From Escherichia coli (GTDB lineage Bacteria > Pseudomonadota > Gammaproteobacteria > Enterobacterales > Enterobacteriaceae), in the NCBI RefSeq assembly GCF_017348835.2, contig NZ_CP071375.1: a DNA stretch of 64,000 bases. One strand, given 5' to 3'. Positions within the stretch are counted from its first letter, which is position 1; every line of letters starts with the position of its first letter. The position numbers are program-made. This document shows positions 51,201 to 54,200 of the stretch, piece after piece.

Positions 51201-54200
51201 CCATAAAGAAGCCTAAAAAGACAGAACGTATTGTAACAATAGTGCTCCCCATCTGAACCTGAGCTCCTCCGTTAAAAGCCAGTGTTCGTATGCCAGAAAG
51301 AGTATCCTGCGGTATTTCCCCCAGTCCCCCACTCGCTGTTAGATATGGTGTTAAATTTATTGGCATAATAAAACCCCCATTAACTTCATTAACATTTTAC
51401 TTGATTTCCTGTTGAAGCATCTTACTTATCACAATGCTTTCACACACCATTATCAGTCTTGCAAAAGATAAGACTCCATTATCAAGCCAAAATAAATTTA
51501 ACTTCATTAACAAACATCACCATGGCATGCCAACAAAAACCGGAGCCGGACTCCGGTTTTGTGAAGCTGTCGGGTTACTTCATCCCGCCAATATTTTCCC
51601 ACGTCCCGTCAGCACGCAGAATTTGCAGCGGTCTTACCACGCACTGTATCTGCTTTTTATCTGCATCCAGTATCACCACCTGCGTGATTACCCTGTCCTG
51701 CTCCGGAATAATGCCATTCTCATCTGACTCCAGAATGTCTGCCGGTCCCAGACGCAGTTGTGCTGTAAGTAACTCCCCGTGTTCACGGTCATCATGCTTT
51801 CCGTACCCGCACAGACGCTGCATAAGTTTTTTTAGTACGTTCATGTCATTCTCCTGTTCTGCCTGTATCACTGCCCACTTCATCCAGCCCCTTAACATCC
51901 TGCCACGGCCCGTCACCAAACCTGACCTGCAAATGCTGAAACAGCCCCTGAACCTGTGTGGCATCTTTGGGGTCAAGAAAGGTCAGTCCAGTGATGAGCG
52001 CACCATCTGTACCCGGGAACCAGCCATTGCTGTTTGTCTCAATAATGCTCGCCGGCCCCAGACGAAAACGGATTTGTGTCTCCCCCGGGTCGCCCTTCGG
52101 TCCCTGAGGTCCGGTTGATGGTCCCGGCATGTGACGGCGGGAAGCCCTCCACCAACAGAATGACGCTGTACTGACCGTACTCAACGTCCATGCTGTAACG
52201 ACCGGCTTCATCCGGATTTTCAGAGGCCACCGTGTTCACCACCACCGTGCTGCTGGTCCGTCTGGCTTTCAGTTGAATGGTGCAGTTCTCTACCGGTTTT
52301 CCTGTGCCGTCTTTCAGTACACCTGAAATCTTTACTGCCATATTCACCCCACAAAAAAGCCCGCCTGAACCGGCGGGCTGTCATAACACTGTGTTACCTG
52401 GCTAATCAGAACTTATAACCGACACCCACGATGAAACCGTCAGTGCGCCAGTCGCCACTGCCGGAGCCTTCATAAGCAATATCAATGGCCACGGATTCGG
52501 TCGGGTTAAACTGCACGCCAGCTCCCCACGCCAGAGAGGTGTCGCTGTGGCGACCGTCATCACTTCCGGTCAGCACATAGTGCGTTTTCCCCTTGTTGTC
52601 AGTTACGCGAAGATAATCCCCGGAGAAAGTCGACACACGGCTGTAAGCCACACCCGCCATCGCATACGCGCTGAACCATTCATTCACGCGCACAGACGGC
52701 CCCGCCATTACGCTGAACCAGCGGTTACGCACGGAATCTTCATGCCAGCGGGTATCGCTGTAACGGGTAAGCTGGCGATTCTTGTCTCCTGCATGGCGGT
52801 ATTTTTTGTTGATCGCCGCATCCACACGTAACAGCGTCTCTTCCTCATCAGGACGCCCCATAGCTGACACCTTCCAGACCATCGTTACCACCTGGACCAG
52901 TGATGAGCACAGACGCTATGGCAACAGCCCCACCACCAATAGCAGCTGCAACAGCCTTGCGTAATGACGGCGACATTATTCACCTCTCGCAGCCTTACGC
53001 TTATCTTCTTTAATCTTGAAATAAAGATTTGTCAGATACGTCAGCAAGCCAAACACCAGGCTACCCAATACGCCTATTGCCACCCACTGGGATGGGGAGA
53101 CTTTGTCCAGCAACTGCAGTAGCCAGTATCCCGTCCCCACCGCTGACGTGGTGTATGACACACCTGTTGTTATTTTTTCCATCTGGTACATACCCCGTCT
53201 CCCGTTATCCGGAAGCTGACAACAATAAAAAGCCACCAGTTAATTCCTGATGGCCCTGATGCATAAACGTCATAATACCTGACTGTTATGATTGACAATA
53301 ATGATAATGTTTATATAGAAAGGTTCCCGATGTGTGTTACATATCATTTCTCCACGGGGAATATCCCCACGCCAGCGCAGACTCTTTTACCCGTTCTCTT
53401 CTGCGCTGGCTCTTTTTTATTATGCTGCTGCATTTACCTCTGGCACCATGCTTTCTATCTCAACACAATACGTGCTACTTCTTGTAACCAATATCATAAC
53501 GATTAATCGACATAGAATTTCTCCCGTGTACAGGAACAGAGTTAAAAAGCCGGAACCGGAATCAAATCACAGGATGACCATCTGCCAGTGGCAGGTCATA
53601 AAAAAAAGGCCGCGCCATGCGCAGCCAGAACTCACAAGGAAAATGATAGAAGGAAATAACATTAGTGATGTACGCATGGCGCCTCCCGCTAAGTTCTGCA
53701 ATGATCAAACAGAACTCGCTACGTGCCCTTAAAACTCGATCATTTAGCCCCTCCAAGGAGGATTCACCATGCGGTTGATTTTTTAATAAACAGTAAACAA
53801 AAAAGTCAAGAATTATTCATTCTGTTCTTTCATCATCGGCCACAGCAATACCACAATGCCGCAGACCAGAGCGCCATCAGTCAGTACCAACATTATCCTG
53901 CTGGTGAAATCCATCATCACCATCACTAAAAGCAGGATCACAACAGCAAGCAGACACAGTTTATAAAACAATGTTCAGAAAACGCATTCAGCATGCCTAA
54001 GGTTCTATTCCTACGAATAGCCAACTTGCAACTTAAAATATTATTTATGCAGCCAATTAAATTCTGGTCCTTACAATATCAACCTGAAGATTCTTATCTT
54101 GTGCTGATTGATAAATGACAAACCTTTTACTACCTGCATTGAAAGAAGTAGACAAAACCAGACAATTATCATAACGAGCAAGAACATAATACCAACCATC

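Follow-up and report, generated by a model that had tools for sequence, protein, structure and literature searches.

The closest described counterpart of the gene considered here is EPclA, a class of side tail fibre proteins with the domain order PfN-PCoil-collagen-PfC. Ghosh et al. (2012, PMC3368898) showed EPclA to be a dumbbell-shaped trimer that is held together by PCoil and PfC as trimerisation modules, the collagen helix being re-nucleated by PfC, and PfN alone to be monomeric. In that work, the collagen length was found to be polymorphic within the family, in steps of three residues, and defective genes, called EPclA*, were recorded for EDL933 and Sakai. A smaller relative is ORF68 of the Shiga toxin 2 (Stx2) phage Sp5, an 89-aa polypeptide consisting of PfC only and placed among the non-essential late genes; no frameshift signal joining ORF68 to the fibre was reported, and the gene was speculated to be a reservoir for fibre variation (Mondal 2016). 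Exchangeable effector loci are found at the very end of lambdoid prophages, and their variation is largely attributed to events associated with insertion sequences (IS), according to a preprint citing Tobe (2006).

In the present analysis, we examined a tail fibre locus on the minus strand at 51575-52347 of a 64,000-nt stretch of Escherichia coli DNA (assembly GCF_017348835.2, contig NZ_CP071375.1), which is referred to as the window. A first-pass annotation of this DNA had described a lambda-Stf-like fibre gene whose decay had spread it over three frames, with repeated deletion and slippage as the cause. The results reported below indicate, with high probability, that the fibre gene is a pseudogene which arose from an EPclA-type gene by one deletion, and that the third frame is a normal separate gene.

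The fibre gene compared with its intact relatives

Three minus-strand open reading frames (ORFs), overlapping or abutting, were detected within 51575-52347, each in its own frame (coordinates mod 3 of 0, 2 and 1 for ORFs A, B and C, respectively). ORF A extends from an ATG at 52341 to a stop at 52039 and its product starts with MAVKISGVLKDGTGKPVENC... (MAVKISGVLKDG...). This ATG is the true start of the fibre, position 52347, at which the locus had been ended, being part of a GTG two codons upstream. ORF A matched the prophage tail fibre N-terminal domain PF08400 with an E value of 3e-39, over profile positions 1-77 of 134 only, and the PDB chain 9e7m_Ta ('Tail fiber protein'), which we take to be the N-terminus of lambda Stf, with an E value of 3e-42. 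ORF B, closed by the stop at 51846-51848, carries TGPQGPKGDPGE (...TGPQGPKGDPGETQIRFRLGPASIIETNSNGWF...) followed by a complete PF06820 domain (Phage_fiber_C, E 3.5e-37). A second complete PF06820 domain (E 5e-36) was found in ORF C, which runs from an ATG at 51844 to the stop at 51575-51577 (MNVLKKL...RLGPADILESDENGII...GGMK). The elements listed by the first-pass annotation are all present where it had placed them, namely three frames, an N-terminus like that of Stf, the GPQGPKGDPGE tract and a pair of related segments, each of which measures about 60 aa here.

When the 921-nt region was compared with 5426 complete E. coli genomes, matches were obtained in 4710 of them (at a median of 2 and a maximum of 20 places in each genome), as well as in 365 phage records, mostly of Stx-converting phages. 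Almost all of the best matches were split in two pieces spanning about 1740 nt instead of 921. Two intact alleles, in CP148401 (L002) and CP013029 (L003), were used as references; the sister strains F2_81 (L001) and PE164 (L004) are considered below. In both intact alleles, the annotated genes run from J through lom, the fibre gene and a small gene to the effector genes. The fibre gene (1311 and 1314 nt, respectively) is annotated as 'prophage tail fiber N-terminal domain-containing protein', and the small gene, which is separate and 270 nt long, as 'phage tail fiber C-terminal domain-containing protein'. The intact fibre of 436 or 437 aa is made of PfN, which serves in tail attachment, an Ala/Ser/Glu-rich coil (PCoil) forming an alpha-helical shaft, a triple helix of collagen (Gly-X-Y)n and PfC, which forms the tip and trimerises, with PF08400, Collagen and PF06820 as its only Pfam matches, and belongs to the EPclA class of Ghosh et al. 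(2012). The same two-gene layout, a fibre gene and a PfC-only gene, is also present in the genomes of Stx-converting phages.

Global alignment of the window with these intact alleles showed one gap only, which measured 815 nt with L002 and 818 nt with L003. Apart from this gap, five substitutions and no other indel separated the window from L002, and L003 was identical over the 303 nt that lie to the left of the junction and comprise the coding part and 74 nt upstream. DNA identity with intact members was 98.4-99.8% on the two sides of the junction, the order lom - fibre - 89-aa gene being kept. The left breakpoint (...ACCAT/CACCGTGTATGAAG..., the slash marking the break) is located in unique PfN-coding DNA and the one on the right (...GGTGGGGG/CAACCGGACC...) at the final collagen triplets, with a junction microhomology of 2 nt (CA). 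Both 815 and 818 leave a remainder of 2 upon division by three, which amounts to one frame shift and puts the 89 C-terminal codons that survive outside the frame of the start codon. An alternative junction given by BLAST, with a 6-nt overlap and a 1-nt gap, was set aside and the gap-free single-deletion alignment was preferred.

The survivors of the deletion are 75 N-terminal and 89 C-terminal residues, identical to residues 1-75 and 348-436 of the L002 protein, and the 272 lost codons (76-347) encoded the second half of PfN, the whole of PCoil and almost the entire collagen domain. Measured against a functional EPclA, PfN is incomplete (75 residues left, where PF08400 has about 134 positions), PCoil (about 116 aa) fell wholly inside the deleted codons, the collagen domain (63-144 aa in known members, 111 aa in a typical EPclA) is reduced to four G-X-Y triplets, and PfC, although intact as a PF06820 domain, is frame-shifted with respect to the start codon. 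The Pfam Collagen model matched the intact relative and not the ORFs of the window. By themselves, four G-X-Y triplets would be weak evidence of collagen; it is the alignment to the intact relatives, in which the collagen domain ends with them, that identifies them. From the native start, the predicted product consists of 75 native followed by 25 nonsense residues. Since this product would be devoid of PCoil, collagen and PfC, and since isolated PfN is monomeric, we infer that the fibre gene is dead.

The near-identical flanks and the same position after lom thus identify an EPclA-derived pseudogene. The first-pass description of a decayed, lambda-Stf-like, collagen-containing side tail fibre was borne out by the PF08400 match and by the alignment to intact genes, this alignment revealing a single deletion and not multiple events.

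Compared with EPclA (e.g. ECs2717/Z0982), the window shares the PfN start, the final collagen triplets and the PfC domain, its flanks showing 98-99.8% DNA identity to the intact 436/437-aa genes. However, 272 codons are missing in one block, whereas the recorded EPclA* variants are small frame-losses between domains. Among the IMG/VR loci having a PfN start, the fibre ORF was disrupted in 14 of 58, several draft loci showing frame errors of 1-3 nt. Nearly all of these disrupted alleles are of about normal length, the distance between the fibre start and the following gene being 1116-1318 nt, compared with about 499 nt in the window. The block deletion of the window exceeds any seen in these 14 loci or listed among EPclA*.

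The likeness to the lambda Stf-Tfa system is confined to the N-terminal side, where about 75 residues are close to chain 9e7m_Ta, and to the gene order J-lom-stf with a terminator after lom. In contrast, shaft and tip of the fibre type found in the window are of the collagen/PfC kind and not the Pf2 repeats and receptor-binding C-terminal region of lambda, and only a relic of about 20 codons of a tail assembly gene, not tfa, lies downstream. A sequence search of PfC against the PDB gave no solved relative, the N-terminal domain being the only one to have one.

The stand-alone 89-aa PfC gene

The 89-aa gene of the window is intact and identical to the L002 gene annotated as WP_001101711.1 by the Prokaryotic Genome Annotation Pipeline (PGAP). 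Its ATG is found 1 nt after the fibre stop, with a Shine-Dalgarno (SD) motif, GGAG, 8 nt upstream. The 89-codon ORF with its ATG was intact in 78 of the 80 IMG/VR phage and prophage loci retrieved with it, and in those 78 the ATG is preceded by the invariant context GGAGAATGACATG, which comprises the SD motif, the fibre stop TGA and one base. Over 55 distinct alleles, the ratio of non-synonymous to synonymous polymorphism (pN/pS) was 0.11, and variable sites at codon positions 1, 2 and 3 numbered 12, 4 and 21, respectively, in keeping with protein-coding constraint. The product was matched by phrog_576 over 1-89 of its 89 residues and so has a PHROG family of its own. Like Sp5 ORF68, phrog_576 and WP_001101711.1, from which no difference was detected, the window gene encodes 89 aa with a single PF06820 domain and has its own start directly after the fibre.

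Proteins matching the 89-aa product were found in E. coli, E. albertii and Citrobacter rodentium. A full-length fibre ending in an ORF68-type PfC was sought among the best 120 of 171 protein matches and none was found, all of them being of 131 aa or less. One database protein, P0062 (L085:4-291), has a collagen tract joined in frame, at a shared 'GPA', to an ORF68-type PfC, which would be a fibre-tip swap; its gene starts at a contig end. NCBIfam held no model matching the 89-aa protein or the NleG of the window. The AlphaFold2 model of the 89-aa protein, built on a shallow alignment of 17 sequences, was unusable (mean pLDDT 52, pTM 0.28); for the related fibre gp61 also, AlphaFold gave no confident model of the C-terminal domain (2026 preprint).

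The PfC segments of ORFs B and C share 24 of 62 residues (39%, E 2e-14 by BLASTP). In DNA, about 107 of 195 aligned columns are identical (about 55%), the two longest gap-free segments being 71% identical at a spacing of 304-310 nt. This likeness is well beyond chance, yet the two copies are old and diverged paralogues. They did not arise by decay, being conserved in functional Stx phages. The 'decay into three frames' of the first-pass annotation holds in so far as the fibre is a pseudogene with one frameshift, the third frame being the intact 89-aa gene, which is separate in intact phages. Two frames are thus in use in intact phages too, and the number of frameshifts added in the window is one, not two. 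For annotation, the lesson is that in these phages a small PfC paralogue always comes after the fibre gene, in another frame, and should not be taken for a frameshifted part of the fibre.

Weighing of the alternative histories

That the fibre was broken in three frames by repeated deletion and slippage, the 89-aa ORF being its last fragment, is suggested by the three frames that are truly used, by the repetitive and length-polymorphic collagen-coding DNA of the EPclA family (Ghosh 2012, PMC3368898) and by the frequency of frame-disrupted alleles, 14 in the 58 loci mentioned above. However, the whole difference from the intact alleles consists of one gap of 815 or 818 nt, which suffices to explain it and whose left end lies in unique sequence outside the repeats. 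Upon tandem-repeat scanning and self-comparison of 51400-52500, no tandem array was found, only the diverged PfC pair and short chance matches, which argues against slippage. The PfC copies, at about 55% DNA identity, are themselves too diverged for slippage, and slippage of the collagen repeats, which would give lengths divisible by 3 or 9 (Ghosh 2012), does not agree with a deletion of 815 or 818 nt. The 89-aa ORF, with its own SD motif and ATG, its purifying selection and its own PHROG family, is not a fragment but an independent gene in intact phages. This explanation is thus largely refuted and we regard it as highly improbable. A collapse of repeats during sequencing or assembly, the real gene being intact, could be imagined, since collagen repeats and multi-copy prophage genes are classic trouble spots of assembly and since 1-3-nt frame errors do occur in several draft IMG/VR loci. 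Nevertheless, one of the breakpoints lies in unique sequence and a loss of 815 nt is unlike a homopolymer-type error. In addition, an 80-nt probe spanning the junction was matched in full at 100% identity in only two of the 5426 complete E. coli genomes, PE164 (pig, China) and F2_81 (pig, Australia), which are independent and differ from the window elsewhere by IS insertions. An artefact is therefore very unlikely, with next to no probability left to it. The refuting outcome named by the first-pass annotation, a single continuous frame upon resequencing, is not borne out, these two genomes carrying the identical junction.

The shortened locus might also still be functional. The fibres of co-resident prophages might be acted upon by the stand-alone PfC protein or by a PfC fragment translated from an internal start, or the locus might be a reservoir cassette from which fibre tips are swapped. 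The intact 89-aa gene in the window, its purifying selection across phages and the 'reservoir' role proposed by Mondal (2016) are in agreement with such a function, as is the in-frame junction of collagen and ORF68-type PfC in P0062. Against it stand the non-essential status of Sp5 ORF68 (Mondal 2016), the absence of any full-length fibre among the 120 matches considered above, and the position of P0062 at a contig end, where it may be an assembly chimera. Furthermore, in PE164 the 89-aa gene of the same remnant is split by an IS3 element, which makes it dispensable in this lineage; a function of the shortened locus appears highly improbable as well. A narrower proposal is that the 89-aa protein may act in its own right, either in trans on collagen-type fibres made by lambdoid prophages of the same host, as their partner, cap or chaperone, or as a donor cassette for tip swaps. 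The gene has stayed intact in the absence of the fibre and of every other virion gene. With such a role, the remnant would be more than debris, but we consider this quite improbable too.

As to the single deletion itself, two points weigh against the account given above. Its length, 815 or 818 nt, depends on the reference; since length variation among the known alleles, these two references among them, is by whole codons, the remainder upon division by three should not be affected. Secondly, a 7-nt motif, CAACCGG, occurs 19 nt inside the left breakpoint and again at the right breakpoint. With this motif at both places, a two-step history, with a deletion at the 7-nt homology and another of 19 nt, retains some probability.

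According to the single-deletion reading, the normal two-gene distal tail-fibre module of lambdoid prophages of enterohaemorrhagic and enteropathogenic E. coli (EHEC/EPEC) would have been turned into a remnant by one illegitimate deletion, about 815 nt long, with one end in unique PfN-coding DNA and the other at the final collagen triplets. This event would have occurred once, in a pig-associated E. coli lineage, and the head and tail genes of the prophage may have been lost before or after it. As all these genes are gone and no virion is left to serve, no selection would uphold the fibre, whereas the adjacent nleG and nleA were retained.

The window is collinear with PE164 and F2_81 and 99.9-100% identical to them, apart from IS insertions and an indel in lom. 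The IS3 element of PE164 (L004:14529-15830) lies within the 89-aa PfC gene, and F2_81 (L001:3911-4967) has an IS903B insertion and a 33-nt deletion in lom; these differences reveal a continuing decay of the same remnant. Since the junction is the same and the IS insertions differ, the window is counted as a third representative of this lineage. In both genomes, PGAP reports a 'prophage tail fiber N-terminal domain-containing protein, frameshifted', then the PfC gene. The pseudogene allele is therefore ordinary and already known as such in public genomes. It matters little overall, as an ordinary dead gene in a gutted prophage, and adds one more case of a defective lambdoid prophage of attaching-effacing E. 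coli that has shed its virion genes and kept its effector cargo.

Effector cargo and prophage context

The fibre locus adjoins type III effector genes near the prophage end, as the first-pass annotation had implied (Table 1). However, its view of repetitive fibre DNA as the hotspot bringing effectors next to att was not supported by the limits of similarity. Similarity to 63 of 78 other prophage loci stops sharply at 51507/51508, about 67 nt downstream of the 89-aa gene and beyond a hairpin at 51536-51560 (-22.3 kcal/mol, z -2.9) that is followed by a U-run and is probably the late-operon terminator. Because similarity ends at this point, the variable effector locus is considered to begin past this probable terminator and not in the fibre repeats. 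The cargo, made of type III secretion system effectors, lies in the terminal part of the prophage with the tail fibre genes on one side and att on the other, which is the position of an exchangeable effector locus. As in the loci of EPEC and EHEC, nleG, nleA and an IS fragment fill the 3.4 kb from the fibre module to the att core; the boundary after the late-operon terminator fits the published loci, and the IS fragment is compatible with IS-mediated shuffling of effectors. A literature search for 'exchangeable effector loci' together with 'tail fiber' found nothing. An exact 15-nt direct repeat, TTAACTTCATTAACA, was observed at 51380-51394 and 51498-51512, one copy at the end of homology (51507/8) and the other directly preceding the ribosome-binding site of nleG; this repeat is a possible boundary of an nleG cassette.

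Table 1. Positions of the fibre locus, the effector cargo and other prophage features in the window
Feature	Position	Strand	Evidence
EPclA-type (PfN-PCoil-collagen-PfC) side tail fibre pseudogene	51846..52341	-	496 nt vs 1311-1314 nt intact; alignment to L002:4077-5387 and L003:4080-5393
Retained N-terminal 75 codons (about half of PfN), then 25 out-of-frame codons to 52039	52117..52341	-	Residues 1-75 as in L002; PF08400; 9e7m_Ta
Deletion junction ...GGGACCAT/CAACCGGACC...	52116..52118	-	Single-gap alignment; junction probe
Last four Gly-X-Y triplets (GPQ GPK GDP GET), out of frame with the start codon	52077..52112	-	Alignment; domain lengths from Ghosh 2012
PfC (Phage_fiber_C) of the fibre C-terminus, coding intact, not read from the fibre start	51882..52073	-	PF06820, E 3.5e-37, positions 1-64 of 64
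Stand-alone 89-aa PfC gene (Sp5 ORF68 type; phrog_576)	51575..51844	-	Identical to L002 WP_001101711.1 gene; PF06820; phrog_576
Short conserved tail after the 89-aa gene, relic of about 20 codons, containing the hairpin at 51536-51560	51505..51573	-	PGAP partial 'tail assembly protein' in strain 2012C-4227
Effector cargo (exchangeable effector locus)	48784..51366		PGAP on the 99.9-100% identical F2_81 and PE164
nleG	50719-51366	-	PGAP on F2_81/PE164
IS transposase fragment, frameshifted and truncated, between nleG and nleA	~50240-50516	+	PGAP on F2_81/PE164
nleA	48784-50025	+	PGAP on F2_81/PE164
att core CTTCCATGTCA, 11 nt, both copies	48168..48178 and 62028-62038		Targeted search; splits chromosomal DUF1175 (yfaT)
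Terminator-like hairpin, then T-run, between lom and the fibre gene	52358..52379	-	Hairpin with T-run
lom (Ail/Lom family) without its first 69 codons	52406..52797	-	Truncated; next to the lysozyme fragment
Lysozyme N-terminal fragment, 42 codons	52848-52976	-	About 60 nt of other sequence between it and truncated lom

The insertion site of the prophage is the DUF1175 gene (yfaT), which is flanked by yfaA and yfaS. A search for att repeats with a 12-nt seed gave none, the 11-nt core being found afterwards by the targeted search. The remnant spans about 48.18-62.04 kb (about 13.9 kb) and contains, in order, int, xis, some nin-region genes, Q, holin, the lysozyme fragment, lom, the fibre pseudogene, the PfC gene, nleG, the IS fragment and nleA, all head and tail genes being absent. 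Of Q and the late promoter region, parts are present. The join between lysozyme and lom (52797-52976) is the scar of a larger deletion, by which Rz, terminase and every head and tail gene, J among them, were lost.

Some further features were noted in passing. On the plus strand at 58060-59832, antisense to the prophage early genes, lies a 590-aa ORF of about 34% GC, annotated as 'hypothetical protein' WP_024216033.1 in PE164. It had no Pfam or PADLOC match and is a moron of the remnant prophage, perhaps a defence or accessory gene. An (AAATAG)n hexanucleotide tandem array occupies 57660-57755, between this ORF and an HNH endonuclease gene. The neighbour of the insertion, yfaS (alpha-2-macroglobulin gene), has an internal stop in PE164. 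Outside the prophage, the chromosomal part of the window contains two naRNA4 (REP-type) clusters (19777-20085 and 31858-32048), as well as micF and tRNA-Pro(GGG), at 28104-28197 and 2766-2842, respectively.

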